In this document: one piece after another, positions 1,594 to 63,515 of the stretch | Numbering within the stretch: the stretch's first letter is position 1 | How the letters are laid out: each line of letters starts with the position of its first letter | Source: Podospora anserina | Lineage: Eukaryota | Assembly: GCA_017654855.1 (NCBI GenBank) | Contig: JAFMPO010000001.1 | Location: forward strand, 1,178,001-1,241,515 | Direction: 5' to 3' | DNA: 63,515 nt | Notes under the pieces: model-generated | The model's input: only the letters and a program-made list of their open reading frames with translations | What the model was told of the DNA's origin: nothing | Databases searched by the model: none | Position numbers and translations under genes: made by a program

Positions 1594-1670
1594 ACTCCTT
1601 AGTATGAAGTCTGAGAGGGGAGCTGTTAGTTGATACTGGGAATAAAAATCTTGTAAAAGCAAAAAGTGAA

Positions 1671-4313: not shown

Positions 4314-4957
4314 GGCTGTAAATCTGTAGCTTTGTATCGTCAATGACCCAATGCCAACTATCGCAGGGACATTTTGCGCAGTCTCTTTCGATATTGGCGA
4401 AGGGCACACAGTCGATTGCAAGACGGCCTGAACCCGTCAAAGGCGGATGTCGCCGCTGAAAGCTTCCCCAGACTTTTGGTTCCGTCCTCTGTGTCCACTT
4501 TGAGCTCGACCTTACAGGGGGGCTGCCAGGCTGAGTCATCATGCAAAGTTTTACCCTAACCCTCATCAACACTACCCCGTTTGTCCCCTTTCTGCAGAGA
4601 AACCCAAGAATTTTATATCTGGAGTCTAAAAGGTCGTTTACTCTTACGCCATGGGTTTTTCCTCACCATGACGTGCATTGTGCTTTCGGATTAGTCCGAA
4701 GCACCTTAGCTTTCCATGGTCTCAAAGAGTCGTCAATCCTCAAGTCTTCAACGAGATGCGAACCTTCAAAAGGCTCAATAATAAGGGGGAACAGCAGGTC
4801 CGCAGTGGGTTGGAAGTCTCTTGCATATGGGAATAAACACCTTGTTCATAATGTATGTACAAACTGAAACAGCCTATTTACAGTCCCGTCTTCTTCCTCG
4901 TCCTCCAATCTGCTCCCCAGCCCTACTTTTACCTGCACATCTTAGGGGCACCGACGT

Positions 4958-14944: not shown

Positions 14945-15635
14945 GGCAAAGGTGTTTCTTTGGGTCTTGGCGGCATTGTCCAGGGAGATAATTGCCAGAG
15001 GTTCATCTCAAGTAGCTGGAGGAGAGAGGCCCGGTGTGGTAGCGGTGCAAGCTCCGAAAACGAACGTCATGTTGATGTATTCTCTTTGTTGAGGCGGCGA
15101 TGATGGCAGAGATGAACTAAAGTTGGCGCTAAGAAATTCGCTGCCATCATGACAGTTGTGGTGTCTCCCCGTCTGGAGTCGTTCCTGCCTGTAGTTGGCC
15201 TTATCCCTTATCGTTGATGGGGAGGGGTTGGAGGGGCCATGACGTCCCCTTTTTCTCGGCTGGGACTGGGCAGCCAATGGGCGCATGTTGACATCGACAA
15301 GAGTCCCACCCTCGTGTTGCTTTTTTTCACTGGTTCGGCGGCTGCCAAGAGCGCGAACCCAATCAATTATCAATTGGCACAAAGAGTGCACAGCCGTCAA
15401 GGTCTGGTTGTCGTGCGACGCCAATATTTATTTTGTTATTTTTTTCCACAGACGGCCCTCTTCTCCGCTGGAATCGCAGCAACAGCCCAGAGGAAACCAA
15501 CAACACTAAACCCGGCACTTTGGCGCATTGCTCACGCCGCCCGCAACGTCAGACAGCTCACTTGCGCGTGATGCGACGACTCGTCTCATAAGACGCGTCT
15601 CCCTTTGACTGGGGGCCCCGCCGTTAGACCCGACA

Positions 15636-17501
15636 ATGCGGCACCCGACCCGGGATGGTCTTGCCTGGGACGACAATGGTCTCGGCCCGGTCGCGAGGTG
15701 GACCAGACAACCCGACATCGAAACCGTCGAGCGTGTATGTCGCCGCGCCCTCAACATCAACCACACTGTCGACTGCAACGTGCACCTGCATGCCAATGGC
15801 GAGTTTAGCAAACTTTATGCCGTCGACAGCATCCGCGGCAAGCACATCATCCGCATCTCCCTCCCCGTCGACCCCGGGAACAAGACCCTCGGCGAAGTCT
15901 TCACTCTGCGACTGGTGCATCGCATGACCGACATTCCCGTGCCCAAAGTCATTGCATGGGATGAGACTGTCAACAATGAGCTTGGGTTCGAATGGCTCCT
16001 GATGGAGATGATGCCCGGCAAGCTAGCTTACTATCGCTGGCGCAAGATGACTGACACCCAGAAAGAGATACTTACCAAGCGCGTGGCAGAGTTCCATACC
16101 CAGCTGCTCCGCTGCGGCAATCTGGGTCAGGGTTTCAGATCGATTGGAACGCTGGGAACGGGCCCGAATGCCGACTACAACACCGCAGTCACACCCTCGC
16201 CTGGCCCCATTGTTGACAGCGTCTTCTTCTCTGGGCCACGCTCCAGTTACCCTGTGGCCCGTGGCCCCTTTGAATCCAGTCATGACTGGCTTCGAGCCTA
16301 TCTTGACCTCATCATCACGGAGCACACAAATGCTCTTGCCAAAGCCAAGACTGATGACGACAAGGAACATGCCGAAATGGTGCTCCGGCTGGCTCGCAAA
16401 CTGCTAAGAATGGTTCATAAGATATTCCCTTCCTTGGTTTTCCCGCCAGAGCATACCGTGCTTTGGCACGACGATCTCTCGTTGAAGAACCTTCTTGTAG
16501 ACGACAATGGCCGCATAACAGGTGCGATTGGATGGTATGTATTATTTCCCTATCACCGCTCTTTTTGTGTCAACATGCTGACCGCTACTAGGGAATGTGT
16601 ATCGACCATGCCACGCTGGATGGCTTGTCAGATGCCTGCATTCCTTCGAGGCGCAAGCCGGAAGCAGAAGCCCAGCAGGGACAGTTATACAAATCTGGCT
16701 CCGCGCCCGTCAGCTTCTTCCACTTCTGACGAAGACCACTTGGACAATGAAGGAAAGACGGAGCTTTATTGGATCCACCTGATGGAGTATGACCAGACCC
16801 GGCTGCGCGAGGTTTATCAATCTCGAATGACACAGCTCTTGGGCCCTGAGTGGGAGAAGGATGTCGACGAAGCCCGGCTCAAGGTTGACTTTCTTGGAGC
16901 AGTGTCTCGATGCGGCACCCAGTTTTATCCTGTCAGAGTAGAACAGTGGGTTGATGCCATAGATCGCAAGGAGTTCATCTCGTTGATGCAAGTCTTGCGT
17001 ACGGGCATCAAAAAAGAAAAGCGACCCGCGACGCCTAGCGGCAATGCCGCTCCAAGCAAAGTGCACTACGAGAGGCCAGCCAGCAGCACGCCCAGCAGAG
17101 TTCAACAAGAGATTCAAAGACACGAAAGGATGCATCTTGCTGGATCAGGAAACCCCACCGCTTCGGTTATTTTCAGGACCGGGAGCCCTACCAAAACGGC
17201 CGCGATGACAGGCAGCTGGACTCCATCTAGACCCAGTTCTGTCAACAGCCACCGTCCCACAACATCATGGAGAGGCTCGGTCTCGGGCGTCTCCGGAGCG
17301 CATCTGGAAACGCCCCAGAGTCCTGTTAGCGTACATGTCCGTCGAAGGTCGTCGGACGGAATATCATTGACCAGCTTGGAACTGCCCAATCCCAAGAGCC
17401 CAGTCAACGTGCATATTCGACGCAACTCGGGGTCAACTTGTGTGTCAACCACCTCGTCCATCGTTTCCGGAACGACCAATTCCTCATCGAAGCTGGGATA
17501 G
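15636..17501 (+). CDS. APH-family phosphotransferase with Ser-rich C-terminal tail (probable in-frame intron ~16535-16591)
   Basis: TDIPVPKVIAWD..NELGFEWLLMEMMPG, RGPF.SS.DWL, LWHDDLSLKNLLVD and ITG.IGW; GTATGT..CTGAC..TAG intron signals. Confidence 0.85.
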   Translation: MRHPTRDGLAWDDNGLGPVARWTRQPDIETVERVCRRALNINHTVDCNVHLHANGEFSKLYAVDSIRGKHIIRISLPVDPGNKTLGEVFTLRLVHRMTDIPVPKVIAWDETVNNELGFEWLLMEMMPGKLAYYRWRKMTDTQKEILTKRVAEFHTQLLRCGNLGQGFRSIGTLGTGPNADYNTAVTPSPGPIVDSVFFSGPRSSYPVARGPFESSHDWLRAYLDLIITEHTNALAKAKTDDDKEHAEMVLRLARKLLRMVHKIFPSLVFPPEHTVLWHDDLSLKNLLVDDNGRITGAIGWYVLFPYHRSFCVNMLTATRECVSTMPRWMACQMPAFLRGASRKQKPSRDSYTNLAPRPSASSTSDEDHLDNEGKTELYWIHLMEYDQTRLREVYQSRMTQLLGPEWEKDVDEARLKVDFLGAVSRCGTQFYPVRVEQWVDAIDRKEFISLMQVLRTGIKKEKRPATPSGNAAPSKVHYERPASSTPSRVQQEIQRHERMHLAGSGNPTASVIFRTGSPTKTAAMTGSWTPSRPSSVNSHRPTTSWRGSVSGVSGAHLETPQSPVSVHVRRRSSDGISLTSLELPNPKSPVNVHIRRNSGSTCVSTTSSIVSGTTNSSSKLG

Positions 17502-43279: not shown

Positions 43280-44050
43280 AGTGCTGCCGATACCGAGACG
43301 AAGGTCATGTTAAATTTAAGACAGGTGTTCCAAGGAAAAACAATGATCTTCTTGGTACAGAGAACTGCCATAACAGCAAGCGCTTTATCGGGTAAAAGTC
43401 GTAACGAGGTGCGTTTTTGTGTAATTCTCTCCCGTTATTCTCATTCCTCTTTGAAGATGCACCCCACAAATTTGATGGCATTCTTCCGTTGGACAACAGT
43501 GTGTTCCTTGTCAAGGGACTGTTCGCATGCGAGCATCCGAGCGGCAACAGAGTCCTTAACTTTATGTTTAGTATAAGCAACGAAGTCCAACAGGCTCTAG
43601 AGGCACCAAACACCATTATAACGAAAGATTCGATTGTTCTCGACACAGGAGCAATGTACTTAACATTCAACCACCTGAAATGGTTCACCGAGCTTTACCC
43701 TATGCCAGAACCCCTTCCGTTTACTGCCGCAACAGGAGGCCAAGGTTACTGCTACTACATTAGCACCATGGAGACCACTATCCCAAATGCTCACGGTAGA
43801 TCTCTCCGTGCCTAGATACTAAACACACACTACTACCTAGAAAGCCCAGCGAATCTCGTAGGTAGAAAATCCCTCAAAGCAGCCAATTTGAGCTGGGATT
43901 TTGACTCTAATACGATCATACACAAAGCCTCTGCAATTGTCATTAGATGCCTCGTGTATAACGAACTTCCTATCATGCCGGCGGATACCCCTCGTGACTT
44001 GAAGACCACAACTGAGACAATAAAAATACGCACTCCTCGCGTCGATCAAC
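43280..44050 (+). mobile_element. Ty1/Copia-like gag-protease relic
   Basis: IVLDTGAMYLTFNHLKWFTEL..PF.AATGG..*..HYY..SPANLVG..SL is the pattern of the Copia protease region; in-frame stops present. Confidence 0.55.
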
Positions 44051-44189
44051 TATTAAGTCATGCACCGCCGCCTAATGCACGCCAGGCGAGACGTAATTGT
44101 TCGTGCATGCCGTATCAGTGCTCTTCGATTGCCGTTTACACTCTATCCCGCATCCCCCTAACCTCCTTTAAAGAGTTATAGGGGATTTG

Positions 44190-44560
44190 TGTAACGAACC
44201 CCTATACAGAACCTCTAAAAGGGATACGGGTTGAAGGTAACTTCTGATAATTAGTTCGGTGCAGCTAAATAGTATACAATAAGATATCTCAATATAAATA
44301 TAAAATACCGTGAATATAATTGTGAATTGTATACTGCGGAACTATTTATCTATATTAGCTAGTTCCTCCGTATATATAGACCTGTTTATTACTATTATTA
44401 CTAATAATAATATCGATTATTACTTATCGTTTACCGAAGGTTAATAATAATCGCGATTATTACCCTTAACGCTAATAATAATCTAACTTCCTTACTTTTC
44501 GGTTTCTAGTAGTTAGACGGGTCGCGCCCCGCGCTCCTTACTTATATTAGGTCCGTAATA
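44190..44560. mobile_element. Probable RIP-mutated solo LTR
   Basis: Starts TGTAACG and ends CGTAATA (CGTAACA after RIP reversal); ~370 bp with internal TATA-like and short repeats. No clear target-site duplication. Confidence 0.4.
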
Positions 44561-44742
44561 TAATTATTATAACCTGCACCGGGAATGGATATAGACTATA
44601 AGGCAGTACGCTAGAGGTAAATATAATAGAATAATCGAAGGTTATAATAAGCGTTTTAAATAAAGGGTTTATTATTAATAATAGGTTATTCTATAAAGAA
44701 CTACTTAAGAGTAAATTATAGATAAATAAACTTAATTACTTA

Positions 44743-44962
44743 TGTAAGGAATTAGATTCCTCGATACAGAGAGCGCTAGGCGCTCCCTCCTATTTATATG
44801 CAGCTATCTATATATATTTCTAAAGTATCTTTATACCTTACTTAGTATGCTCAGTAGTCTTAGCGGCTAAGCAAACTAAGCAATCTTTTATAATCGATAT
44901 ACTTAGTATGCTCAGTAGTCTTGGCTACTAATCAAACTAAGTACCTCCTAATTAGTTATATA
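44743..44962. repeat. LTR-like relic containing a ~43-bp direct repeat (61-bp spacing)
   Basis: acttagtatgctcagtagtctt.g..ctaa.caaactaag occurs at 44840 and 44901; the segment starts TGTAAGG. Confidence 0.4.
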
Positions 44963-44984
44963 GAGACTTTATAGGTTTTCCTAT

Positions 44985-46015
44985 CCCTATTAGTTATTCT
45001 CCGATAGATTGTAGTACAATCCATTGAGAAACGCACTAAAAAAATCGCCCCACTTTGGAAACAGGGGGTAGGATCCATTAAGAATTCAGTTATATAATCT
45101 AATAAAATCTTTCTTACTAAAATAAAAAAGAAAGATATTATTGGAATCGCCTAAATAAACTATATAGAATAATATAAAATATATTATTATACGAGCGGTA
45201 TAGAATAGTAAATAATAAATATAAAGTTAGGTATAAGTGTGCTAGTAGTATATATAAATAGCAAGGTAAGTATAATCCGTTAAGAATTTAGTTATACGAT
45301 CCAATAAAGTTTTTTTTACTAAAATAAAAAAGAAAAATATTATTAGAATTACCTAAACGAGCTATATAGAATAATATAGGATATATTATTGTACGAACGG
45401 TATAGAATAGTAAATAATAAATATAAAGTTAGGTATAAGTATATTAGTAATATACGTAAATAGTAAAGTAAGTAAAATCCGTTAAGAATTTATTTATACG
45501 ATCCGATAAGACTTTTCTAACCAAAATAAAAAAAAATATATTATTAAAATTATTTAAACGAGCTACATAAAATAGTATAGGATGTATTATCGTACGAGCG
45601 GTATAAAATAGTAAATAATAAATATAAAGTTAAGTATAAGTATATTAAAATGGTAAGAAAACACACAAAACAACCACAACACCACAAATATACCCTCAAT
45701 AGGTCTCAGAATAAACACACTTGCGTAACAGTAACTCGCTCGCAGGCCGCACTTCACGTAAGACAAAGAAAAGACACTATGGGCTCGCAGGCCACATAAT
45801 AAGCACCGGATTAGCCTAATTAGAGGGCCAGAATTGCCTGCACGCGTGTAAGGCATAAAATACGAAAAAAAGAATAAAAGTCGATGTCCTGTCTAAAATA
45901 GAATGTCCGAAGCAGACCGCTTATATATATAACCCCTGAACCCCTAAGTCCTCTGAGAGCCCCGCTTCCTTATTTATACTTTTAGGCCTATAGCCGTACC
46001 CCAAACCAAACCTCC
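44985..46015 (+). mobile_element. Internally deleted (mini) copy of the telomere-linked helicase unit
   Basis: Has the same ~105-bp leader and palindrome as 52193-52298, then ~2.8 copies of the 202-bp repeat (phase marks 45092, 45294, 45496), joined directly to a block (45652-46015) homologous to 60366-60700. Confidence 0.75.
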
Positions 46016-46129
46016 CTTCGCATTTAATTATTATAAACTAGTAGGTAAATGCGTATATAAGAAAAAAATCCTTTATAAATTAAAAAAAAAAAGAAAATAT
46101 TATTTAATAAAAAAAAAGGAAAATAATAT

Positions 46130-49075
46130 AATCTTACTATCCCTTTATCTATTTTCCTTTAATTAGAAAGAAAAGTACCCTTACTTTTCGGATCTTAAAG
46201 TATATTTCCGTCCCTATCGAACCATTATAATTAATAACCTAATAACCTTCTCCTTTCGTTTCTAAAGAACTTTAGGAGCTTACTCCTATCTTATAAAATT
46301 AAATATATAATTAAATAAAAAATATATTATTAACGATCCTAAATAATTATAAGTAAGGGGATAGATAATTATAAGCCTAAAGAGGAGCGGTAAGTTTATT
46401 ATTATAGGAGTACGGAACTTAAAGGGGGTTACTATCCTATTTAATTATTAAGAGTTACTTAATATATTACTTAATTTAAATCTTTTATAATTAAAGGGAA
46501 GACCTACGACGTATTTATTTCCCTTAATAATAATAATTAAAGTTAATAGAGAATTAAAGAGGGAAGTAAACCGGGGAATTAATAGAGATTTAAAAGGAAA
46601 CGAAAGGGTATTTAGTAGGTTAAATCCTTCCGCGTTTATTAAGTTTTCCAGGCCCCTCCTCCTCTATTTCTTATTACGTACCCTTTAATTAGGCTTATAA
46701 CCCAAAAACCTTTTTATATAAATTATTTATAACTTTATTATTTTTTTCCCTATAACGCCCACGGTCTTATAATCTTTATAATAATAATCTCCTTTTTAAA
46801 CTTTTATTACCGTTAAATCCTCCTCTTTACCGTACGAAATACCTTCTTAAAAATAAGTATAGTAGTACTTTAAAATTTAAAAACTATATTCTTACGCCCC
46901 GCCCTATTTACCGTAAATTAGCCTCCTCACTTTTACGTTAAGGCTATAGTAAAAAATATAACGGATATAAAATATTAAATAAAAAATAATATTAGTTTAA
47001 TACCCCTTTTAATCCTTTAACGAATCTATATAAATTAAAATATTAATAATAACGTTATAAATACTTATTACTTAATAACTTCCGTTATTAATATAAATAA
47101 AGAGGACTTAGTATCGTCGGTTAAAAGCATTATAATTATCGTTAAATAGGAAAAAGCGTATCGACGACTTTATTATAATAAGGTTTAGAGGCTCTCTAGG
47201 GATCTATATATAATATTCGAGGATTTTTTAAAAAGAGTACCGAAAAGCGTAAGTAAGGACCGAGTTAATAAACTACTATTTAACTTTTAATTAATTTTAA
47301 AAATTATATATAACGTAAGTAAGGGAAGTTATATAAATACTATAAATATAAGTCCGATTAGGGAGAATCGTTATTTTTAAATTAAAAAAAAAATATTTAA
47401 TAATATTAATCGAAAATTATTTTACGAAAATAATATTAATTTAGTCGGGTTACCTTCCTATAATATAATTTCCTAGGTCGGTAATTAAATTAAGGTTAAA
47501 ACGAATAAGCTAAAGAGTATTATCGCTTTAGGGAAGGAAAATACCGCGCGAGGGATTAGAGCTATAGACCTTATCGATACCTTAAAGGTACGCTTTCCGA
47601 ATAATCTCTTTAACGAGATTATTAAGAGGGCCGAATTTTTTAGTAGTAATAAATTCTTTTTATAATATATTATAAATAGACTTTATAAAAAGCGTTAATA
47701 ATATCGTTTTATAAGAATTAAGAGGAAATAGTGTATAATATAATTTATAATTAAAAGGTTATTGAGAGGGAAGTAAGGAATTTTTTTAGAATAGAGAGTT
47801 AAAGAAGGAAAAAGATCTTCGGTAAGTCTTTATTCTTTATTATTTATTTAATTTATAAAGTAAGATTATTAGATAGTTACGTAAGCCGTTTAAAGAGGAA
47901 AGAGCGCTCTAATAAGTTTCCTTTCTATAGAGGTTTATAAGACTAGTTACACTATCCTATCCTTTAATTATAAATATTTATATTAATTCTTTTTATTTCC
48001 GTTTACTCTTTATTTTTTTTAATATTTATTAACCGCTTCCTCCTAATAACCTTTTCTTTAAAGAAACCTACTACTTTATCCGATTAAGTAATCGACGACC
48101 TTACTATTTAAGTATTTACGACCTCTTTCGTTAAAAATTTTTTTAGTTAAGTCGAAAGAATTTTTAATTTTATTACGTACGATTAATCCGAAATCGCTAT
48201 AGACTTTATTTAAAAGCCTTTATTTATTACTTTTATTTATTATTCTATTAACCTTATTTGTACTTTTAATAATTAAGGTGTTATTTATAAAAGGTATATT
48301 TAAGTTCGGTATCCTACTTACGTTTATAATTTTATTATATTTAAAAATATTAATATTTATTATAATATTTTTTTTCCCTATTAAATTATTCTTTAGTACT
48401 TTAAGATTTCCCTTCTAAATTCTAAATATATAGTTACTTCCCTTTACTTTAAATAGTTCCTCTTTAATCCGACGAAGAAAGGGAGTAAAAAAAAGTAATA
48501 ATTACTTTTTAAAAATATTAATATAGATAAAATTATTATTAATTATATTTTTAAAACGTTATTAACCGGTTCCGTTAAACGGATTTTCGTTAAATAGTTT
48601 AATGGGTAGTTCTTCGGATATTAGTTCTTCGAAATCGTTAAACGGACTTATCGCTTTAAAAATTTATTTATTTAAATTACCGGGTTACTATAAATACCGC
48701 CCCCTTAATTAAACTTAGTTTAATATTAATATATTAAATTTAATTATACTAATCTATATAATAAATATAATTAAAACTATCATTAGTTTTTCGTAACATT
48801 TCCCGATAGGATTAAAATTAAAGTAATATAGTTATACTTCGGTTATATAAGAAAAAAGGACTTCGATTAAAAATACGGAAACTACTAGTATAAGGATATT
48901 TATTACTTATAGTTTAATATTAATAAGGATAGGCTTTACTTTAAGGATTTTAATAGTAATAGGTTATCGAAGTTAAATTATAGTACCGTAAACTTAATTC
49001 TTAATAGTAAGGAAGTCGATTAGGATTAAAAGTAAGAAGAATAGCGGGCTAAGTATAAAGAGTTTAAAAAATAGT
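46130..49075 (-). pseudogene. Long RIP-degraded ORF-like relic of unknown family, downstream of Gypsy integrase
   Basis: Minus-strand frames read as protein-like with TAA/TAG stops consistent with RIP (e.g. KFGPLNNLVKEIIRKAYL*GIDKVYSSNPSRGIFLP; DRSKLLKFFRNERRRLLG). No recognisable motif. Confidence 0.4.
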
Positions 49076-49081
49076 AAATAA

Positions 49082-49118
<37 letters not shown>

Positions 49119-49249
49119 ATAGTCTTTTTTTTTTTTAAATTAAAGAAAGGGGTATAAAGAAAGGAGTAAATCGGAAAAAGAAATAATAGGAAAAGAAAAA
49201 AAAAATTTAAAAATTTAATATAATAATCTTTATTTTAATTAATTACTTT

Positions 49250-52213
49250 TTTTAATATCTTTTTTTCTTTTAAAAATAAATAGTTCCTATAGTTCTATTC
49301 TTATAATATAAGTTTTAGTACCTTTTTAAAGAAAAATAATAATTATAATACTTTCGTTATTATCTCCCCCTAATTATTTAAAAAGTCCTTTAATTTACCT
49401 TTTTTTAAAACTATTTTTATACTTTTACCCTTCTTAAATCTTTTCTATACTTTAATATTTTTCCGTTTTATTTAAATTTTCCCCTTAATTATTATTCTCT
49501 TTAATATTTTTTTTACTATCTTTTTTTCTTTATCCTTATCTTCCACTATATTTATACTTTCCTTTATTTTATTCCTAGGTACCTATTTAATTTTCCCGAG
49601 TTCTAGCTATATATCCGTATCCTTTTTATTTATATATATATTTTTTAATTTAAAAAACTTCTTTACCTTATTTAACGTATAAGAAATTTATAATAGTACG
49701 CTATTTAGTATCTCTAGGAAATAATAAATATTATTTAATTCGATTTTCCTTATTCTAAAAGGGCCGTCCTAGCGATATTATAACTTCCTTACTATATTTA
49801 TATCTAACTTTCTATCTATTTAATATATTAATATTAAGTCCTTCTTTTTAATTATATTATTTTTAGGCCTAATATTATGAATCCCTTTTTTATTTTTTTT
49901 TATTACGGTTTTCTATTTTATTATACTAACCCTTTTAATTATTAGAATTAAATTTATTTTTTAGGATTTTAATAATTTCGCCCTTACCTTTATTAAATCT
50001 ATAGTCGCTCTCTCCTTTTAATATTTCTTTAATCTATCGAAATTAATTTTTTTTTACTAAATAACTTTTTATAACGGTACGTCCTTTTCGATCGGCGTAA
50101 TAGGGTTAAACCTATATACTAAATAAAAAGTATTATACTTATAAATATTTCGTATTATAATCTTATTAGTAAATAATATATAAGGGAGTTACTATTTTTA
50201 TTTTTTTCCCGTCCTATCCGTTATTTTTATTAGTATTAATATAATTAAAATATAATTAAATTCCGTTACTCTATTTGCTTTTACGTTATAAAGTAAAACT
50301 ATTATCCGAAAAACTCTTAGCCTCTTTAAAATCTTAATAACTTCCTTTTTAAATTTTAATCCACCGTCTATTACTATAATTAAAGGGTAACCTTATTTAA
50401 GGATAATATTATATAGAATAAAATTTTTAACCCCAAAAACTTTACTTAAATTTAAGACCTTCGCTTCTAGATACTTAATTAAATTATCTTTCGCTTTTAA
50501 AAAATAAATTTTTTTTCCCGAAACCGTTAATAAAAACTAAACGTTTAAATATTATTTTATAAATAAAGTAATTAAAGGCTTAATATATAAATACTAATCT
50601 TCCTAACGTTTCGGGCTCCATTATTAATATTATTTATATATTTTAATCTAAGCCTCGACGTTAGCGTATATACTTTTCTAATAATAGTTTTTTATTATTC
50701 GGGTATAGGTAACTTCCTATCCTTTATAGCCCATCTCGTTATAATATATATTAAAGATTCTTTCCCGCTCGATTAAAGGGTTAATAATTCTCCTAAGGGG
50801 AAAGCCTCTTTTATTTAACTTAAAAAATAAAACTCCGTTTTCGAGAATTATTTTTAGGGCGTTATTTTTAATAGTTTAAACGTTAAACCTCGTTTTAGTC
50901 CTTAGCTCCGTACTAGTCGCGAGAAACTCGGTAATAGTATAAAAATAAGGAAATTATAATCTATTTAAGTAGGGGCTTTACTTAATAACTTCCTTTTTTT
51001 TCTTCCTAATATTTACCTGTTAAATATTTATTTCCTAGATATCGTTTTTCTAGATCCTTACGTTAACCTTATTATTAATATCTAATTTTAATTCCTTCTC
51101 CTTTAGATTAAAGGGGTTAAATAGCTTTCTCGATAGTGCGTTTACTATAAGGTTTTTACTTTTAGGGATATAAATAATTATAAAGTCGAAAAGTTTAATC
51201 TATTTTAATTATTTTATTATTAAAGTACCGGAAACGTTATTAGCCGCCCCCTGGACTTAATAGACTACTATTTAAACGTCCGTTTCTACCGTAAAGTATA
51301 CCCCGAAAAAATACCTTCTAAATTTCCTTAAAGTATATAATAATCCTTTTAACTCCCTCTTAATAATATTATACCTTTATTTAGCCGGGCTCTAAATACT
51401 ATTTTTAAATCGATAAAAGTACCGTTTTCTATTAGGTCCTATTTATTTAATTACTACTCCTTACTCCGTTAAGCTTATATTAAAAATAATAAAGATTTTA
51501 TTAAAACGGTTATTATTAAACGTTAAAGAAGTTAAATATAGTATTTTTATAATTAAAAAGGTAAGTTACTTTATTATACTCTATTAAACTTCTATCTATT
51601 CCTATTTTGTATCCTTCCTTATTAAGAAATATAGCGGAACTGCGATTAGATTAAAGAGAGGTACCTATAGCCGATAGTAGCCGGTAATCTTTAGGAAGGC
51701 ACGAATATCCTTAAAACTATAGTAAGTTCGCTATTCCCTTATTTTTACTATCTTTATTTAATTAAGGAGGCGCCCGTCCGGTATATAGGAATAGCTAAAA
51801 ATAATAGCTTCCCGTTTATATTAAAGGGATTTTACGGCTATAATTATAGCTCCTATAAGTTTATAGTTAAGTAAGACTATATTAATATTCTTTAAATACT
51901 TTAGGACTTACTTTTTAATTCCTAACTTTTTTTCTTTACTATTATAGTCCTACCTTAGCCCTTTTACTACGATATTATTTAGGTATAGCCGATATATTTA
52001 TAGGATAAAATCTTAAAAGACTTTAGTTACAGTTTTTTAGAACTGGGTTACTAAGTTAGTAGTTCCTTAAGGTAGGGTATATATCCTAAATAGGCCGATA
52101 AATATCGCGAAAGTAATAAAGTTTCGGCTTGTTAAAGCTAATTTAATTTAATTATATCCGGAAAAAAAGTTAAGTAAGGAAGTAATAAGGTACCCTATCA
52201 GCTATTCTCCGAT
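49250..52213 (-). mobile_element. RIP-mutated Ty3/Gypsy pol relic (RT-RNaseH-integrase), 5'-truncated inside RT
   Basis: RT: LL(D)FFSGY(D)(Q)I, TLP(Q)G.TN, YL(DD)IVVKG at ~51971-51985. RNase H: LRKFRRYFFG..FTVETD. Integrase: (H)(D)EMG(H)KG, VDGG.(E)FK, YN.KAN..E, and R(W)DGPFRI at the C-terminus. Domain order is Gypsy type. Confidence 0.9.
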
Positions 52214-52232
52214 GGATTGTAGTACAATCCGT
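52212..52232. other. Terminal palindrome ATGGATTGTA-G-TACAATCC(A/G)T marking the left end of the TLH unit (second copy at 45004-45024)
   Basis: Perfect 8-bp arms GGATTGTA/TACAATCC at 52214-52230; combining the two copies gives 10-bp arms. Lies where the Gypsy RT frame stops. Confidence 0.8.
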
Positions 52233-52297
52233 TGAAAAGCGCACCAAAAAAAAGGCCCCACTTTAGAAACAGGGGGTAGGATCCGTTAAAGAATTCA

Positions 52298-53650
52298 GTT
52301 GTACGATCCGATGGGATTTCTCCCGTCAAAATAAAAAGTAAAGATAGCATTAGAATCGCCTGGACGAGCTGCACAGAATGGTATAAGGTGCATTATCGTA
52401 CGAGCGGTGTGGAATTGTAAGTAAAAGATGTGAAGTTAGGTATAAGTATGCTGGTAATGTACGTGGATAGTAAAGTGAGGTTGGGTGATGGAAGGGTAAG
52501 TTGTACGATCCGATGGGATTTCTCCCATTAATATAAAAAGCAAAGATACTATTAGAATTGCCTAAACGAGCTACACAGAATAGTATAGGGTGTATTATCG
52601 TACGAGCGGTGTGGAATTGTGAATAGTAGATATAAAGTTAGGTATAAGTGTATTAGTAATATACGTAAATAGTAAAGTAAGGTTGGGTAATAGAAAAGTA
52701 AGTTATACGATCCGATAGGATTTCTCCTATTAAAATAAAAAGTAAAGATACTATTAGAAATAACTAAACGAGTTATATAGAATAGTATAAGGTGTATTAT
52801 TGTACGAGCGGTATAGAATTATAAGTAAAAAATATAAAGTTGGGTATAAATATACTAGTAATATACGTAGATAGTAAAGTAAGGTTGGGTAATGGAAGGG
52901 TAAGTTGTACGATCCGATAGGATTTTTCCCGTTAAAATAAAAAGTAAAGATAGTATTAAAATTGCTTGAACGAGTTACATAGAATAGTATAAGGTATATT
53001 ATTATACGAGCGGTATAGAATTATAAATAAAAGATATAAAGTTGGGTATAAGTATATTAGTAATGTACGTGGATAGTAAAGTGAGGTTAGGTAATGGAAA
53101 GGTAAGTTGTACGATCCGATAGGATTTCTCCTATTAATATAAAAAATAAAGATACTATTAGAATTGCTTAAACGAGTTATATAGAATAGTATAGGGTATA
53201 TTATCGTACGAGCGGTATAGAATTATAAATAGTAAATATAAAGTTAGGTATAAGTATGCTAGTAATGTACGTAAATAGTAAAGTAAGGTTGGGTAATAGA
53301 AAAATAAGTTATACGATCCGATAGGATTTCTCTTATCAAAATAAAAAGCAAAGATACTATTAGAAATAATTAAACGAGTTGTATAGAATAGTATAAAGTG
53401 TATTATTGTACGAGCGGTATAGAATTATAAATAAAAAATATAAAGTTAAGTATAAATATATTAGTAATATACGTGGATAGTAAAGTGAGGTTAGGTAATG
53501 GAAAGGTAAGTTATACGATCCGATAAAATTTCTCCCGTTAAAATAAAAAGTAAAGATATTATTAAAATTACTTAAACGAGTTGTATAAAATAATATAGGG
53601 TATATTATTGTATAAGCGGTATAGAATTATAAATAAAAAATATAAAATTA
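52298..53650 (+). repeat. Tandem array of a 202-bp unit, ~6.7 copies (helicase-associated-repeat-like)
   Basis: (G/A)TACGATCCG recurs at 52301, 52503, 52705, 52907, 53109, 53311 and 53513, an exact 202-bp period. Copies differ mostly by C>T and G>A. Confidence 0.95.
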
Positions 53651-54422
53651 ATCGACTTTTATTATTATACGATTTATTTAATTATCGGAATTATTAATAA
53701 CTATAGGCTCCTAGCTCTCTTTCGCCGCTCCTTTATTTCCCTTGCTTTTTTTTTCGGCTTTAGTACCGCTTTATTTAGCGGTATAGAAACTATATTTACT
53801 ACCGTAATTCCTCCACTTATAATTACTATAAACACTACCCTAGTACCTATCTGTCGTACGATAATCTTTAAACGGCCCTCTATTAGGCTTGCTAGTATAG
53901 GTAGTATAGGGAGAGGTAGCTACTAAACCACGGCTCTAAATTAAAACTATATTTAAGTAGCTCGGACGAGCTAGTACTTTAGCCCCCTTTACTTTGCCGG
54001 GGACGTATTCGATATCGGCCGATAGTAGAGCCGAAATTATTTATTATATCTCCTATATATTTATTAATTTAAATATTATTATACGGGAAAAATATATATT
54101 AATATTAATATAGAAGCTATTTATTAGGCTCTTAATATAAGGTTAATTAGTATCGATAACCTCGTACGAGCTACGGGTAGTAAAGATAAGAGTTATTTTA
54201 AATATTTATTTAAAAGTTAATTAATTTATACGATTAAAAGTTTATTAGAAAAGGGCTTTAATTAAAATTAAACTTATACCTTTAGAAACTTTAAGACCGT
54301 ATATACCGTTTAATTATTATACTTTAAGATCTTTATATTACCTCTTAGGCGATAATACTAGTAAACAATAAATTTATAAACCCCGTATAAGAATTATATA
54401 ATACTTTTTTACTATTATATAA

Positions 54423-54487
54423 TATTCTATTATACGATATTTATATTATTCTATTGTACGATATTTATATTATTCTATTATACGATA
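54423..54487 (+). repeat. 24-bp tandem repeat, ~3 copies (tattctattRtacgatatttatat)
   Basis: Directly visible; contains the ATTRTACGAT motif. Confidence 0.8.
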
Positions 54488-54539
54488 AGCCTACTATATA
54501 ACCGTCCGGGAACTAAATATCTATATCTTTTAATTAAAC

Positions 54540-55440
54540 CTTATCGTACGGTACCTAGATAGCTTAATCGGAATAATAAGGCTATATTATATAGCTAGCC
54601 TGTCGAGGGATTTAGAAGAAAAGGCCTGCTTTGCAGACCCAGACCCCGGCAACCGCACGCCACTGCCTTCCTGCCGAGGCATGCCCTGACCATCGTACGG
54701 GACTAGCAACTATACGCCACTGCCTTCCTGCCGAGGCATGCCCTGACTATCGTACGGCACCCAGACGCTTTGATCGGAATAATAACGCTTTGTTGCAAAG
54801 CTAGCCTGTCGAGGAATTTAGAAGAAAAGGTCCGCTTTTAAAGACCCAGATCCGGCAACCGCACCCCACTACCTTCCTGCCCAGGCATGCCCTGACCATC
54901 GTACAGCACCCAGACGCCTTAATCGGAATAACAAGGCTCTATTACATAGCTAGGCAGTCGAGGTAGTTGGAAGAAATGGTCCCAGATCCTCGCAGCCGCA
55001 CGCCACTGCCTTCGCGCCCAGGCGAGCCTTACCTACCGTACGGGACCCAGACGCCTGGATCGGAATAACAAAGCTCTATTGTATAGCTGGGCAGTCGAGG
55101 TAGTTAGAAGAAATGGTCCTAGATCCTCGTAGCCGTACGCCACTGCCTTCGTGCCTAGGCGAGCCTTGCCTACCGTACGGGACCTAGACGCCTGGATCGG
55201 AATAATAAGGCTCTATTGCACAGCTGGCCTGTCGAGGGATTTGGAAGAAAAGGCCTGCTTTGGAGGAAAAGGTCTGCTTTTACAGACCTAGACCCCGGTA
55301 ACCGCACGCCACTGCCTTCCTGCCCAGGCACGCCCTGACTATCGTATAGGACTGGCAACCGCACCCTACTGCCTTCCTGCCTAGGCACGCCCTAACTATC
55401 GTACGGGACCCAGACCCCGGTAACCGCACGCCACTACCCT
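54540..55440 (+). repeat. GC-rich modular tandem repeat (A module ~80-90 bp plus B module 57 bp) immediately upstream of the TLH frame
   Basis: ATCGGAATA recurs at 54567, 54773, 54922, 55059 and 55196. The B module gcaaccgcacgccactgccttcctgcc.aggcatgccctgaccatcgtacggga is repeated about 8 times. Confidence 0.9.
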
Positions 55441-55571
55441 TATCCACTTACACGTAACCCACTCTACCTTTAATAAAGTATCCTTTTCCAAAAAAACTTA
55501 CTAATAAACTTTAATTTAACAATATCTCGTATCGTATATAACTATTACATTACTATTAATACTATACTAGA

Positions 55572-58500
55572 ATAGACCCTTTTATTTATATTTCCCGCTT
55601 TTAAATTTTTATTTGTAGGAAATGTAAGGTGGCTATTCTTATAAATAAGGTGCTTACTTATCTTCGTACGTCCTATAAAGATATTATAGTTGTGGATAGA
55701 CTAGATATTGTACGAGAGTATAATAATTTACTGGCGGTCTTTCGAAAATAATAAGACTTAATAAACTTTATATTTCCTTTTACGGTAATTAACCTAATTC
55801 CAGAACTGGGGAAGCTTTCTTCTAATAGATTAAAGTGCGATACTTACGCTTATATCGTACGGACTAAGAGGGCGATATAGGAGTACTACCGTACGAAGTA
55901 CGATTAGGTTAACCCTAATATAAAAGGGAGAAATATTAAAGTAGTTTAATAATATTAAGGACTTTAAATAATTAGGATATATTATTAATAGTTTTTTAAA
56001 AGCCGGTTAGTTATTAGATATTTTAAGGTACGATTAACGGAGCTGGTAGCCGGGAGTCCTGACCTTATATAATAAACTTAAAGATAAAAAAAATAGTTTA
56101 TAGTATTTTATTATACGATTAGTTTAATCCTTTAATAAATATTAATAATTATTATAGTAAATAAGGGACGATTAACTTTAAATCTTTAATTAAATAGGAT
56201 AGGTTGGGTATATTACTTTAGGTTTTTAGACCGGCAAACCGTATATCGTTCGACCTTTCTTAATTTAAACGAGAGATAGTTAAATAGTAAAAATCTAGTT
56301 ACCTTTATGGTCCTTTATAAAATTTAGGAAAGGATTAATTAAATTACTACCGATATAATAGTAAAGTCGTTGTCCAATAAAGTTAGTTACCTAGTTTTAT
56401 TCGAGGTTAATAAAAAAACGATTAATTAAAAACCCTTTAAACCTTTTAATAATAGTAATTTAGTCCTTCGTATAATATAAAAGTATTTTTTTATTTAAAA
56501 AAGGATTTTTAGGTATATTTACCGTATATAGAGTTAGGATTAATAGGATCGGCTACCGTACGATTTAAACGTTAGTTAGATAAGAAGTTTAGAGATTATT
56601 ATATAAGTAGTATAGGAGTTTTACTACGGTAACGATAAGGCCGGTAGAGAGTTACTAAATTAGATACTTATCGATTTTTTTATTAGACTTTTAGATTATC
56701 CTTTCCTATAGTCGTTATACGAAAACGCTTTCCTCTTTACCCTAGCTGCTATAGCCCTAAAGGATAATAAAAGGTAGTATACCCCGTCCGACTTTATACT
56801 ACTCCTCTCTACTATCGTTACTTTTAATAAAGTTTTTATCGTACGACACTTACTTTACGAGTTTGCCCGGCTGGAAGAGGTAAGCAAAAAGCTTAGTCTC
56901 TTTAATATCGTCCGCTTTAAAGTCTCGAGGTTTATAACTAAGGTTTATTAAAGTAACTACCCTACACCGATAGACTGGGTTTTGGAGGCTCGTACGTATA
57001 ATATAATTATTAATAGCTTTACGGTATCCGAAGGTAGGCTTACGTTTAACGGTACTACTATTATATATTAAAATATCTTTATTACTATTAACGCCCTGGC
57101 CGAAATAATGTATATTCTAGTTAATAAAATTAATTATATAGTCTAGGACCTAACTTTTTCGTTAATATCGGGTATTTTTATTCCGGAAATTCCTTAAAAT
57201 AATTTAAAGAATAATATAAGTTAGGATAAAATTGGGTATTCCTTTCTTTCCGATCTTAGTAATATATGTTTTTAGCGGCCTTAGAATTAAATTGTATGAC
57301 GAATTACCGAAAATCTTTTCTTTATTTAACTTTAGTTAAGAGAATAGGGTAATAGTTATATTTATTATACGACCGAGGCCTAGTCGTATCTGGACCGGGT
57401 AGATAGGTTCCGATCCCTCCTTTTTATTACTGTTTATTTATTAGTAGGGTTACCGCTTTATACGATAAAGCTTTTAAGTATAAGGTTCTACAATATACCG
57501 GTTAGAGGGCTTAAAAATATATTTATTTAGTACGGTATAGTCGTAATCGTATTACGGTATAATAAAGGATTAAGCTATACCGGATAGTTAAAAGTTATTT
57601 ATTACTATTTCCTAAGGGAGCTAGGTATAAGCGTCGTACAATACCTTTAATTTATCCACCCCTTTTACCTTAGTTTATAATACTAACTTAACGGAGCCTT
57701 TATCCCTACCCTATTCTTCTAGGATTCTAAATTTATACGGCTATTTAAAGATATTAAGTTTGGGGGTGCCGGCCAAGGTATATCCTCCGGTAACCTAAAA
57801 AATTAATAGTCGTTCAATAAAGTTAGCCGGGCCTTCGTATTGTATATAAAGCGCTACCTCGGATTTAAAATTAATATTCGGCCCTAACGTTATATTACCG
57901 TAGGTATTACCTGCTAATTTCTTACTTATTTTATTCTAAAAAGTTTATTAGAAAATAAGATAGTACCGTCGTCCGATGATTATGACGGGTTTGATTTTAG
58001 TTGCGACGAGGATAACGAAAATAAGGGCTTTAATCCTATTATTGCGGCCTAAACCGGCTACTCGGAAAGGATTACTGGAATGGTATATGCTAGGTATATT
58101 GACTAGGGAAGGTTGGGGTATACCGTACGATAATAGCGGTTTATAAAGCTTAGTTAGTTATAGCATTAGTTATTTACCTTCGGCTCGGATAATACTTTAA
58201 CCCTCTAGTAAATTAAAATTAATTTCTTTTAGAACTAACGTTATACTATACGGTAGGGACGACTCCGGTACTTAGTTAACTTTAATATTAAGGGCTATTT
58301 CCGTTAAATGTTTAATAATTTTAATATTAGTTTTAAGGGTAACTAGCGTAAGGTATTAATTTTTATTATATAAGGGTTTAGCTTAATCCTTTATATTACC
58401 GGGATAAGTAGTGGAAAAAGTATTATTTTCCTACTCCTAGCTTATTATACGAAGGACGGGGTTATTATTATTATTTTTCTTTTTATAGTACTATAAGAGG

Positions 58501-60278
58501 ATATAGCCCGGCGTTATAAAGAATTAGGGATTGGTTATACGATTTAAAACTTTAAAGAGGTTTCGATTAATTAGGTTATTTTTATAACCCCGGAGGCTTT
58601 TAATACTAAAACGTTTAAAACCTTCGTTAATAGGCTTAACGTACGATAATAGTTTAACCGGATTGTTTTTAACGAGTGCTATATTATTTTAGACTCGTCG
58701 TACGAATTTCGACCACTCTTCCGGTAAATCGGCCAATATATAGCTTTAATCGGGATATAATTACTTTTTTTAATAGCTACCCTCCTACTTCGGAACTTAT
58801 TAGGGTTTTATAAGAGTTTATATTTTGATTCGTAAAAGGTGGTTATCGTATGGTTTATTATATTCCGGTCGAATATTAAGTATTTTGTAGTTAAGTATGG
58901 GGATTAAAAGGCCGTCCTTCAAGCCCTTTACTAGTAAATTAACTCTATCGGTAACCGTGATCCTCGTACGAGGGTCATTATTTATTTCCCTTCGATCGAT
59001 TTTACTAAAGCTATTTTATACCTATTTAAGTATCTGGTATACTATAGTAGTATAGAAAAGAGTATCCAGAAGAGTAAGATCGTACGAGGGTAGATTAAAA
59101 GCGGTGGTACTATTATAGTAACGTCTGCCCTAAATATTAATATCAATATTTTAGACGTACGATATATTTTCTATGCCGGGCTTCTAAGGATATTAAGGGA
59201 CTTTATTTAGGAAAGCGGACGAGCCGGAAGAGACGGAGTAAAGGCCGAATTAGTAATTTTTTTTATAAAGAATTGTATAGCCGGAAGGTTAATTACCGGA
59301 GTTATAGATTTAGCGTTATTGGAGATAAAGTATTTCGTACGGGATAGTAACCTATATTATAGGATTATTCTTTCCCGGGTAATAGACGGGCGGATAGATA
59401 GGGCCGGGTATAAGGAGGGCGAGGAGTTATGTGGGTTATGTGAAGAGCGGTTTTTTAATATAGCTCGTATAGAGTTATTCCGAATGGAGGAGGAGGCTTA
59501 TAGGTCTTATTATATAGTAATCCCGGAGGCTATAGATAAGTAGGCTTTCGATATAGCTATTAATAAAGAAAAGTAACGTTAGGTTATTATAAAAAAGCGG
59601 GAAAGGAGGAAAAATATTGTACGAGACGTAGAGGTTATAATTAAAACGTTTTTATAATTATAGGTAAACTATATAGTTTACTTTTTAAAGTATACCGAGT
59701 TTAGGGAGGAATACGTACGGTACGAATTTTAGTAATCGACGGCCTACGGATTCCACGGTATTGTACGAAATACTTTATAACTAACCAAACTTCTTAGTGG
59801 ATTAGAAAAGCTATATATATTAAAAGGTTTATTTAAGGATAAACGGGCTTAAAAAAAAAATATGGAATTAAGCGATTAGCTTTTAAGGGTTAGGGGTTTA
59901 AGTTTAAGTACCGTACGAAAGCTAAACGGAGGTTTCTAGGGGTATAATAAATGTAGGGTTCTAAAAAGGTTTTGTAGGCGGTGGGAACCGTTAAGGGAAG
60001 ACGAGGGTTCGTTTTATAAGTCTAGGAAGGATTATTTGTACGGGATAAAATTAATAATAGGGTTAGTTGTAACTAAAAAAAGGGATTTAAGTTAGTTTAA
60101 AAAGGATATTAAGGTACTTTATTAGAAATACGGGGTTATATTGGATAACGAGATGGGGGTAATACGTTGGTTACTCGTACGGGTAAAAGTATCGGATATT
60201 AAGTATTCTATAATAGTATTAGTTTGGGTTAAGGTGTGGGAGGAAATTTATACGAGATATCCAAAGTTGATAGAGTAA
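55572..60278 (+). pseudogene. RIP-inactivated telomere-linked RecQ helicase (TLH-like): DUF3505-like zinc finger, tyrosine-recombinase-like domain, RecQ helicase, Zn-binding C-terminus
   Basis: One reading frame (all motif starts congruent mod 3) from ATA (ex-ATG) at 55572. N-terminal ICRKC..T(H)LRTS(H); Walker A TG.(G)(G)GKS at 58398-58421; motif II IVF(D)EC(H) at 58671; (T)ATLP; RSNI.Y; TSAL..I(D)..DVR; (Q)ESGRAGRDG at 59208; R..L...DG..DR..(C).EGEELCGLC. Transcribed toward the telomere. Confidence 0.9.
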
Positions 60279-61049
60279 TATTACGGTTTTTTTTTTTAAA
60301 AAAATATATATATATATATATTTTATAAATAAAAATAAAAATAAAGAAAAATATTATATTATAATAGTAGAAAAATATATAAAATTAATTATAATATTAT
60401 AAAGATATATATATAATAAGAGCTTGCTAGTAAGCTATACTATACGTAGGAAAAAGAAAAGATATTATAGGCTCGCAAATTATATAATAAGTATCGGAAC
60501 GGTTTGATTAGAGGGCTAGAATAGCCTATACACGTATAATATATAAAATATAAAAAAAGAAAAGTCGATATCGTATTTAAAATAAAATATTAAAAATGAA
60601 CTATTTATATATATAACCTATAAACCCCCGAATTCTTTAAAAAGTTTATATTATTATTTATACTTTTAAAAATATAGCCGAACTTTATATAAATATATTT
60701 ATAAAACTTTAAATGTACTATTTTACGAAAAAAAAAAATAATGTTTTATAATAAAAAGAAATTAATAAATATAAAGAGACTTTTTATTAATATTTTTAAA
60801 TAGTATAAAAGAAATTAAATAATTAATAAAGAAAGAAAGAAAAAAAAGTAATTAAATAAGGGTATAATATATAGTAAAAAAAAAAAATTATTAATTAAAT
60901 AAATTTAAAATATAAAATTTATTATTCTTTATAAATTAAATAAATAAAGTTAGATTGATATATATATATATATATAAATATTAATACTTAATATATATAA
61001 ACGAAAAAAAAAACTATATATTATAATATAAAAATTTAAAGAATATATA

Positions 61050-63480
61050 ATTATTATATATAAGTAGGAAAGTACCCGAACCGCTATATATATATATAAG
61101 GATATATAAAGACTAACTACTATATATTAGTAAGAGGGAACACGAATTACTATACGTATATATAAAACTATATAAAAGCTAATAACTATATATAAGTATA
61201 AATGTATTAAACCCGCTATATATACGTAAAAAAAAAGTATTAACCGCTATATATATAGTAAATAAGGTGCTAACCGCTATATAAATATAGAAAGGAATAT
61301 TAACCGGTATATATATATGGAAAAAAGTATTAACCGGTATATATATATGGAAAAAAGTATTAAGCGCTATATATACGTAAGGAAAAGTATTAACCGCTAT
61401 ATATATAGTAATAAGAGTACTAACCGCTATATATATATAAAAAAAAGTATTAACCGCTATATATATATAAGAATACATTAAAACTAATTATAATATAAAT
61501 ATAAGAAGGAATAGTAACCCGTATATATATATGGAAAGAAGTACTAACCGATATATATATATAAAAAAATACGTTAAAACTAACCGCTATATAGATATAA
61601 AAGGGAATAGTAACCCGTATCTATATATAGAAAGAAGTGCTAACCGCTATATAAATATAGAAAGGAATAATAACCCGTATATATATATAGAAAGAAATGC
61701 TAACCGCTATATATATATAAGGATACGTTAAAACTAACCGCTATAGAAATATAAAAAGGAATAGTAACCCGTATATATATATGGAAAAAAGTATTAACCG
61801 CGATATATATAGATAAAGATACGTTAAAACTAACCGCTATAAAAATATAGAAAGGAAGAGTAACCCGTATATATATGTGAAAAGAAGTGCTAACCGCTAT
61901 ATATATATATAAAAATACGTTAAAACTAACCGCTATATAAATATAAAAAGGAATAGTAACCCGTATATATATGTGGAAAGAAGCGCTAACCGCTATATAT
62001 ATATATAAAGATCTATTAAAACTTATTACTATAAATATATAGAAAGAAATACTAACCGCTATATAAATATAGTAAATAGTATTAACCGCTATAAATATAT
62101 ATAAAGATTTACCGCTTTATATATAGCAAGGAATACTAACCGGTATATATATAAATAAAAAAAGTATTAATTGTTATATATAAATAAAAAGACTATTAAG
62201 GGTAAAAAATATATATATATATATATTAATTAAAATTAACCGCTATATAAATATAGAAAGGAATATAAACTAGTATATATATATGGAAAAAGGGGCCAAC
62301 CGCTATATATATATAAGGATACGTTAAAACTAACCGCTATAGAAATATAAAAAGGGATAGTAACCCGTATATATATATAGAAAAAAGTATTAACCGCGAT
62401 ATATATATAAGGGTAGGTTAAAACTAACCGCTATAGAAATATAGAAAGGAATAGTAACCCGTATATATATATAGAAAAAAGTGTTAACCGCGATATATAT
62501 ATAAGGGTAGGTTAAACTAACCGCTATAGAAATATAGAAAGGGATAGTAATCCGTATATATAAAAAGGAAAAAGTGTTAACCGCTATATAAATATAGAAA
62601 GGAATATTAACTTATATATATATATAAAGAAAATGCTAACGGCTATAAATATATAAAAAGAAATTTTAATTATTATAAATATATAGAAAGATCCGTTAAG
62701 ATTAACCGCTATAAATATATGGAAAAGAAGTACTAACCGCTATATATATATAGAAAAGAGTGCTGACCGCTATATATATATAGAAAAAATTACTAACCGC
62801 TAAAAATATATATAAAGATACGTTAAAACTAAGCGCTATCTATATAGTAAAAAAGTATTAAACCGCTATATATATATATATATAAAAGTATATAAAAAAT
62901 CAACTGCTATATATATATCTAAAGATATATTAACCGATATATATATATATAAAGAAATACTTACCGCTATATATAAAGAAAAAAAATATTAAATATAATA
63001 TATATATATATAATAAATAAAAACTAAGCGCTAGATATATAGTATAAGAAATACTAAACGCTATATTTATAGTAAAAAGCATGCTAACCGCTATATATAT
63101 ATGATAATATATTAAGACTAACCGCTATAAATATATTAAAAGAACTATTAATAGTAAAAAGCATAATAACTGCTATATATATATAATAATATATTAAGAC
63201 TAAGCGCTATAAATATATTAAAAAAAGTGTTAACAGTAAAAAGCATACTAAACGCTATATATATATAATATTATATTAAAACTAACCGCTATAAATATAT
63301 TAAAAAAAGTACCGATAGAAAAAAGCATACCAACCGCTATATATATATAATAATATGTTAAAACTAACCGCTATAAATATATTAAAAAAAGTACCGACAG
63401 AAAAAAGCATAGCAACCGCTGTATATATATAATGATATGATAAGACTAACCGCTATGATTATGTTAAAGGAAGTGCTGCC
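61050..63480 (+). repeat. Subtelomeric minisatellite of ~30-bp units with TAACCGCTATATA / TAACCCGTATATA cores and ~90-97-bp higher-order blocks
   Basis: Dozens of aaccgctata cores are visible; higher-order unit gtaacccgtata..gtRYtaaccgctata..gttaaaactaaccgctata (e.g. 61514, 61610, 61763, 61860, 61956). Confidence 0.9.
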
Positions 63481-63486
63481 CGGGTA

Positions 63487-63515
63487 TAGGGTTAGGGTTA
63501 GGGTTAGGAGTTAGG
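63487..63515 (+). repeat. Telomeric repeat (TTAGGG)n, chromosome end
   Basis: TAGGG TTAGGG TTAGGG TTAGG AGTTAGG at the very end of the window. Confidence 0.9.

Follow-up and report, generated by a model that had tools for sequence, protein, structure and literature searches.

The window analysed here, a stretch of 63,515 nucleotides from Podospora anserina, ends in telomere repeats, (TTAGGG)n on the plus strand at 63482–63515, and its GC content drops from about 0.5 to 0.2–0.35 beyond 44 kb, with dinucleotide indices of the RIP type. Towards the telomere, the distal 19 kb consist of a short high-copy repeat (44190–44385, starting TGTGTAAC; E1), a spacer, a small copy of part of a helicase unit, a Ty3/Gypsy relic, a full helicase unit, a terminal satellite and the telomere repeats themselves. 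Tandem-repeat finding delimits the satellite at 61213–63468 on the plus strand, where CTAACCGCTATA(TA)n forms the core of repeats whose periods, nested in one another, are 30, 82 and 94 bp; it stops 14 bp short of the telomere repeats.

The full unit, encoded on the plus strand, begins with a leader (52193–52296, delimited by its alignment to the small copy) that is followed by 6.7 units of a 202-bp array (52297–53650), in which RIP mutation rises from left (GC 0.42) to right (GC 0.24), and by a core (53651–60322) containing a RIP-wrecked gene for a RecQ-type telomere-linked helicase together with upstream repeats. The helicase is recognized by a frame with the sequence GRAGRDG and by RecQ helicase relatives at E 1.3e-93, and tblastn places the helicase homology at 56181–59495 on the plus strand, so that the gene ends within a few kilobases of the telomere repeats. 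The full unit is a telomere-linked helicase unit. Upstream of the gene or in its N-terminal part lie three copies of a 137-bp GC-rich tandem repeat (54845–55250) in which RIP mutation is far lighter than around them (the kilobase in question has a GC content of 0.41), and a 24-bp sequence is repeated three times at 54413–54487. The 3' end of the unit, at 59000–61000, displays a G-over-C skew of +0.39 to +0.42 and scattered GGGTTA-like motifs (e.g., 59884–59895 and 60223–60234), possibly degenerate telomere-like sequence or one-stranded RIP.

The left part of the small copy repeats the beginning of this unit. The sequence-only reading had described a leader, a palindrome and about 2.8 array units repeated from 52193 on, and a blastn search confirms the repetition, with 76.2% identity over 665 columns (E 6.8e-142) between 44985–45647 and 52193–52857; TRF identifies the same 202-bp period in 2.9 copies at 45073–45647 and in 6.7 copies at 52297–53650. 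The homology sets in sharply at 44985/52193, and the flanks further to the left fail to align. The core, which had been described as a missing segment of about 7 kb, is indeed absent: 53651–60322 has no counterpart in the small copy, the helicase gene is lacking, and only the leader and the array are common to the two. Segment 44985–45650 is a genuine same-orientation partial paralogue of the leader and array of the helicase unit that lacks the 6.7-kb core, which makes the small copy the truncated remnant of a unit and not a unit in its own right.

The two leaders are closely similar. That of the small copy (44985–45087, plus strand, GC 0.40) is lightly RIP-mutated and 89% identical to 52193–52296, only 9 transitions separating the two in 103 bp. 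Both start with a common 21 bp (44985–45005 and 52193–52213), 19 of which are identical, in agreement with the earlier observation that the small copy keeps this segment, and which are directly followed by a 17-bp palindrome (8-1-8) at 45006–45022 and 52214–52230; these are the only sites in the window that match the palindrome with 0 mismatches, and a metagenome scan for the motif returned 0 loci. The array of the small copy (45088–45650, plus strand, 2.8–2.9 units, ending at unit phase ~155) is more heavily RIP-mutated than that of the full copy, with a GC content of 0.20 vs 0.29. The two arrays are distinguished at every unit boundary (2 in the small copy, 6 in the full copy) by a variant of about 20 bp at the end of the unit, and the units of the small copy end in the variant found at the leader tail.

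The right part of the small copy also recurs behind the helicase gene. A RIP-aware local alignment of 45652–46015 with 60201–60900 yields a score of 238.5, compared with a mean of 36.8 (sd 5.1, maximum 56.8) in 300 dinucleotide shuffles, i.e., z ~40, and with 89.7 for the highest-scoring of 82 RIP-mutated control tiles. In an ordinary blastn search the match reaches E 3.9e-39, and AT-rich background hits have E values of 1.8e-12 or worse. The alignment previously proposed between 45652–46015 and 60366–60700 therefore survives composition correction, its extent being corrected to 45651–46003 vs 60365–60690, with the right limit of homology at ~46003/60687 instead of 46015. The second block (60365–60690, minus strand, GC 0.21) is heavily RIP-mutated. 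There are 80 sites with C or G in the small copy and T or A in the full copy, 11 of the reverse type and 16 transversions, and 33 of the 38 CpA sites are mutated in the full copy, vs 37–43% for the other C dinucleotides, in line with the preference of RIP for CpA, which bears out the claim that this block is far less RIP-mutated in the small copy.

To the right of the small copy, segment 46009–52192 is recognizable by homology as a RIP-killed Ty3/Gypsy element on the minus strand, with a RIP index of 0.07 and a 5' truncation inside the reverse transcriptase (RT). A Pfam search detects RT_RNaseH (E 9e-6), with the RNase H at ~51253–51496; a phmmer search returns 9105 matches at E<=0.001, the best at 1.3e-85; and five intact pol proteins used as tblastn queries cover 49649–52222 on the minus strand. 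The distance of ~3.6 kb (46009–49649) between the end of the pol homology and the right block of the small copy is long for a Gypsy element, and Pfam finds no match on either strand of this interval.

Several features suggest that the right block of the small copy belongs to this element. The block is 358 bp long (45651–46008, minus strand, GC 0.44), with TGGT at 45651 and ACCA at 46005–46008, that is, TG...CA ends with short inverted termini. Beside it, on the minus strand at 46011–19, lies the polypurine tract GAAGGGAGG, followed by the 3' side of the Gypsy interior; the minus-strand orientation of pol (49649–52216) is the right one for a 3' LTR with its polypurine tract, and collinearity with contigs from other Gypsy copies extends as far as 46397. 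The homology between the two copies stops at the block end: anchored comparisons to the right of it give p 0.14–0.57, the comparison of 46009–46700 with 60691–61300 gives p 0.54, and no Gypsy sequence is found to the right of the second copy at 60365–60690.

The abundance of the block in sequencing reads was assessed with raw Hi-C reads (run X21) mapped at 80% likeness, which pools paralogues, and with summed contig depths in three Logan-contig runs (X1, X3 and X9). In X21, the bin of the block collects 1158 and 1144 reads in the two orientations, vs a mean of ~150 over 11 bins of the helicase core (~7.6x) and 42–406 over the bins of the Gypsy interior (block ~1150 per orientation). Contig depths in the other three runs are ~15,000–16,000 for the block vs 860–6,000, and specifically ~16,000 vs 1,900–6,000 for the core in X1; overall, the block is ~5–13x more abundant than the core. 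Hi-C junction reads accumulate at 45817/45822 (2615+1885), where the sequence reads GATT, the RIP product of a GATC. The block is thus a high-copy sequence, its absolute copy number depending on a genome size that we assume to be ~36 Mb. Because of the TGGT...ACCA ends, the layout of polypurine tract and Gypsy sequence, the stop of the homology at the block end and the abundance relative to the core, we infer that 45651–46008 is the 3' LTR of the Gypsy relic and that 60365–60690 is a second, solo-like copy. It is somewhat probable that the 1.03-kb stretch as a whole is a non-functional composite relic, its left two thirds being an old paralogue of the leader and array of the helicase unit and its right third the 3' LTR of the Gypsy relic at 46009–52192.

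Some properties of the block fit less simply. The 5' end of the element is truncated at 52192, so that the same Gypsy copy offers no second LTR, and no target duplication is readable in the RIP-mutated flanks; the second block is co-oriented with the first and separated from the Gypsy element by the helicase unit; and the RIP index of the block is 0.89 vs 0.07 for the adjoining interior, which is odd for one element. Furthermore, one contig in each of X1, X3 and X9 joins 44385 directly to 45648, with 21 letters on one side, a joint which hints at a longer repeat, starting at 44190, with the block as its second half.

The repeat at 44190–44385 (~195 bp), which lies outside the helicase unit and is hardly RIP-mutated, is itself abundant (~2030 reads per orientation in the bin 44000–44573 in X21). 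Its loose ends, before 44189/44190 and behind 44383, are seen in all 4 runs, with a sub-border at 44326 (among the best 24 of 3156 rows). It has no second copy in the window and none upstream of 60365, and it is possibly part of an LTR. The spacer between it and the small copy (44386–44984) is a partly RIP-mutated low-copy segment, as judged from read depth, without a significant match elsewhere within the window. Its depth is the lowest in X1 and X3 (1328 and 1819), save for two telomere-side bins; in X9 it is 1149, and several core and Gypsy bins are lower. Within the spacer, GC-rich palindromic motifs (GCGCCCCGCGC and GAGCGCTAGGCGCTC) are found at 44500–44790, and a direct repeat of ~43 bp at 44840–44885 and 44903–44945.

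The junction between array and block in the small copy had been attributed to a deletion at a TATATTA microhomology (~45641). This attribution is not supported: TATATTA is ordinary sequence of the array unit (phase 148–154) that is present before the LTR in both copies, and about 40 bp of putative array also precede the LTR of the full copy. The latter segment, a putative array-unit stub between the core and the second LTR copy (60323–60364, plus strand, phases 118–155), is indicated by an exact 12-mer, by its spacing to the LTR and by an anchored test. Exact matches to the 12-mer TTATAAATAAAA number four in the 63.5-kb window; three belong to the array, at phase 118, and the fourth is at 60323. 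The 12-mer lies 42 nt from the LTR in the full copy vs 41 nt in the small copy. With the start of the LTR as anchor, comparison of the adjoining 25, 35 and 45 bp on its left gives p 0.0096, 0.0071 and 0.0159, i.e., a likeness above that of 99.0, 99.3 and 98.4% of AT-rich controls. Unanchored tests for an array remnant to the right of the core give p 0.34 and p 0.31, and an nhmmer search finds no match there at E up to 100. Since the stub amounts to ~40 AT-rich bases and the unanchored tests are not significant, these data are suggestive of a stub in front of the LTR of the full copy.

A real stub would imply that the array/LTR boundary arose a single time and passed to both copies, and that the core (53651–60322) sits inside one array unit, flanked by a putative direct repeat of ~25 bp (array phases 118–142). 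Recombination between the two repeats, or between more extended stretches of array, would then excise the core and produce precisely the arrangement of the small copy. Given that the full copy seems to keep ~40 bp of in-register array before its own LTR, the boundary looks inherited, and the join at ~45641–45652 is probably the old array/LTR boundary common to both copies, not a deletion scar. One contig in each of three runs, together with 11 raw reads, goes back by 46 bp over this boundary (45642–45687); therefore, another allele or copy has a tandem duplication of the array/LTR junction.

These observations are best compatible with a reading to which we assign a probability of roughly 0.55, namely, that the small and the full copy are two old neighbouring members of one subtelomeric unit, both with the same array/LTR junction and capped by the LTR, the inner one being devoid of the core. 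The ancestral unit would have had the order leader, array, helicase core, array stub and LTR (with Gypsy), as suggested by the LTR copy and the ~40 bp of in-register array that follow the helicase in the full unit. The array/LTR boundary would have been made once, by insertion of a retrotransposon into the array, and the core (6.7 kb) would most likely have been looped out of the inner copy by recombination between flanking array sequences (a direct repeat of at least 25 bp). RIP would then have acted heavily on the long repeats, that is, the arrays, the core, the Gypsy element and the core-attached LTR, and would have left the short ones, namely the leader of 103 bp and the small copy's LTR of 358 bp, largely untouched.

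The two copies may have become neighbours through tandem duplication long ago, or else through recombination with a different chromosome end at which Gypsy homology was used. Tandem duplication of a segment comprising leader, array, core, LTR and Gypsy, with later formation of a solo LTR in the distal copy, would trivially explain the common left boundary. Both the distribution of RIP and the variants of the array speak for a long period in which the two copies evolved apart. Recent tandem duplication in situ is disfavoured as the only cause, given that RIP has hardly touched the leaders and the small-copy LTR and that the array variants are different; a plain tandem duplicate of 14.7 kb in which both copies of Gypsy are intact is rejected because Gypsy sequence is absent to the right of the second LTR copy.

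The alternative that survives best, although we consider it unlikely, is that the small copy and the Gypsy element represent an older subtelomere in which a break in the RT was repaired by copying the unit of another chromosome end, from the leader to the telomere, guided by Gypsy-derived homology (21 bp or more) at the left edge of the donor unit. The 21 bp common to both leaders are of interest here, as 52193–52213 had been taken to be RT coding sequence. The minus strand of this segment continues the Gypsy RT frame (IGE*LIG vs FSEEFAG in the family), and when it is added to the RT, the score obtained with a profile built from 50 intact relatives rises to 77.6 bits from 75.2; the gain of 2.4 bits is equalled by 11 of 400 random 21-mers of similar GC, and the resulting p of 0.03 is weak. 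The alignments of four of the five intact pol queries reach into or past the 21 bp (to 52195–52222); no RT match extends beyond residue 28. The evidence weakly supports a Gypsy origin of the 21 bp. Repair by copying would also account for the sharp step in the RIP index at 52192/52193 (0.07 vs 1.0), for the difference between the array variants and for the light RIP mutation of the leaders at the edge of homology. However, a family unit would have to carry a piece of Gypsy at its left edge, and none is seen in the window. It also overlaps with the favoured reading of two old neighbouring copies and differs from it only in how the copies became neighbours.

Still less probable is a single microhomology deletion at TATATTA from a full unit, with the right block as the genuine 3' end of the helicase unit. 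In its favour, the two blocks have the order and orientation that they have in the full unit, TATATTA stands at the join in both copies, and the heavy RIP of 60365–60690 fits a block that was duplicated together with the core. Against this, the sequence-only assignment of the block to the helicase unit does not withstand the excess of the block over the core in reads, or its TG...CA ends, polypurine tract and continuity with Gypsy sequence; the motif at the join is ordinary array, with array preceding the block in the full copy as well, and the two arrays are different variants.

It is improbable that the history ran in the opposite direction, the 6.7-kb core being a discrete, possibly recombinase-mobilized insert in one 202-bp unit and the small copy retaining the unfilled site. 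The interruption of a single array unit by the core, with ~25 bp of duplicated array (phases 118–142) as the target duplication on its flanks, would be expected from such an insertion. However, the significance of this AT-rich flanking repeat is marginal, the same picture would result from recombination between the repeats on either side, and other insertion sites are not in evidence.

The remaining proposals of the sequence-only reading are not supported either. A MITE-like non-autonomous mobile derivative, with its two ends as the cis-required sites, is very improbable. The sharp left boundary common to two copies with different left flanks and the palindrome at the start of the leader are in keeping with it, but the other properties expected of such an element are missing. 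Terminal inverted repeats do not join the ends of the small copy: no pairing of 44985–45010 with 45990–46015 is found among the best 25 of 53 inverted pairs, the nearest one being internal (44994–45011 with 45697–45714, 72%). The flanks at 44984/46009 (TTTTCCTAT immediately before 44985 and AACCTCCC immediately after 46008) contain no common duplication, although RIP could mask a short one. Moreover, the right end is an LTR-like high-copy repeat, the other end of the helicase unit lacks a second copy of the palindrome in the window, and one such small copy is seen in the window; an Rfam search of 43800–46400 gives no match at E up to 1. Instead of a small mobile element, the 1.03-kb stretch is a relic that ordinary rearrangement has left behind. 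The scar of an older chromosome end finds no support, since both telomere repeats and the terminal satellite are missing on the distal side of the small copy, with no TTAGGG-like matches between 44476 and 59883 and one isolated degenerate 12-mer of the satellite at 46024 that forms no array.

Comparable structures are known from other chromosome ends. The Y' elements of yeast are helicase-bearing subtelomeric repeats with long and short classes that differ by an internal deletion, and they spread by recombination. Y'-short retains the helicase ORF and is bounded by telomere-like repeats, whereas the small copy retains nothing of the gene and has an LTR as its distal part. As in solo LTRs and LTR-mediated rearrangements of Ty3/Gypsy elements in RIP-active fungi, a TG...CA block lies by a polypurine tract, is much commoner than the element interior and has a lone second copy; unlike in those systems, neither an intact pair of LTRs nor a target duplication can be made out, and RIP has affected the LTR less than the interior next to it. 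A report on Fusarium oxysporum describes tlh-containing regions (TLHcr) at chromosome ends, truncated forms of which lie beside retrotransposons and tandem repeats and show RIP decay, with, e.g., 22 full and 2 truncated or 17 full and 20 truncated regions per strain (PMC12857005). The Podospora locus resembles these in having RecQ-type helicase units in full and truncated forms in a subtelomere; it differs in that the F. oxysporum units contain interstitial telomere repeats and non-LTR elements, whereas here there are no telomere repeats inside and the partner is a Ty3/Gypsy LTR element, and in that the Podospora remnant keeps only the upstream leader and array (PMC12857005). For P. anserina, PMC2441463 describes repeats nested together and small segmental duplications interspersed with transposons, with differences mostly of the RIP type. 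That text makes no mention of the helicase unit or of the present structure, its telomere content being the rDNA telomere junction and references, and one of its supplementary files makes no mention of LTR, gypsy or solo elements. In the portions of the Podospora literature searched for telomere-linked or subtelomeric RecQ helicases, the structure was not found. As far as these sources extend, the structure belongs with the known truncated helicase regions of F. oxysporum and with the nested repeats and segmental duplications of P. anserina (PMC12857005, PMC2441463).

The locus illustrates in detail how helicase units, satellite arrays and LTRs of retrotransposons come to be pieced together into fungal chromosome ends, and it shows RIP as a record of history in which short repeats stay readable and long ones are erased. 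Because the 103-bp leader and the 358-bp LTR remain readable in this way, the lightly mutated LTR copy can serve as a near-ancestral reference for de-RIPping its family. Otherwise, the structure is one of ordinary subtelomeric decay. For the helicase family, it offers a candidate pair of sites with and without the core; should the pair recur at other ends, self-movement of the core would become testable, and if the core is indeed an insert, then, together with the 17-bp palindrome at the left edge of the unit, telomere-linked helicases would be site-specific mobile elements.
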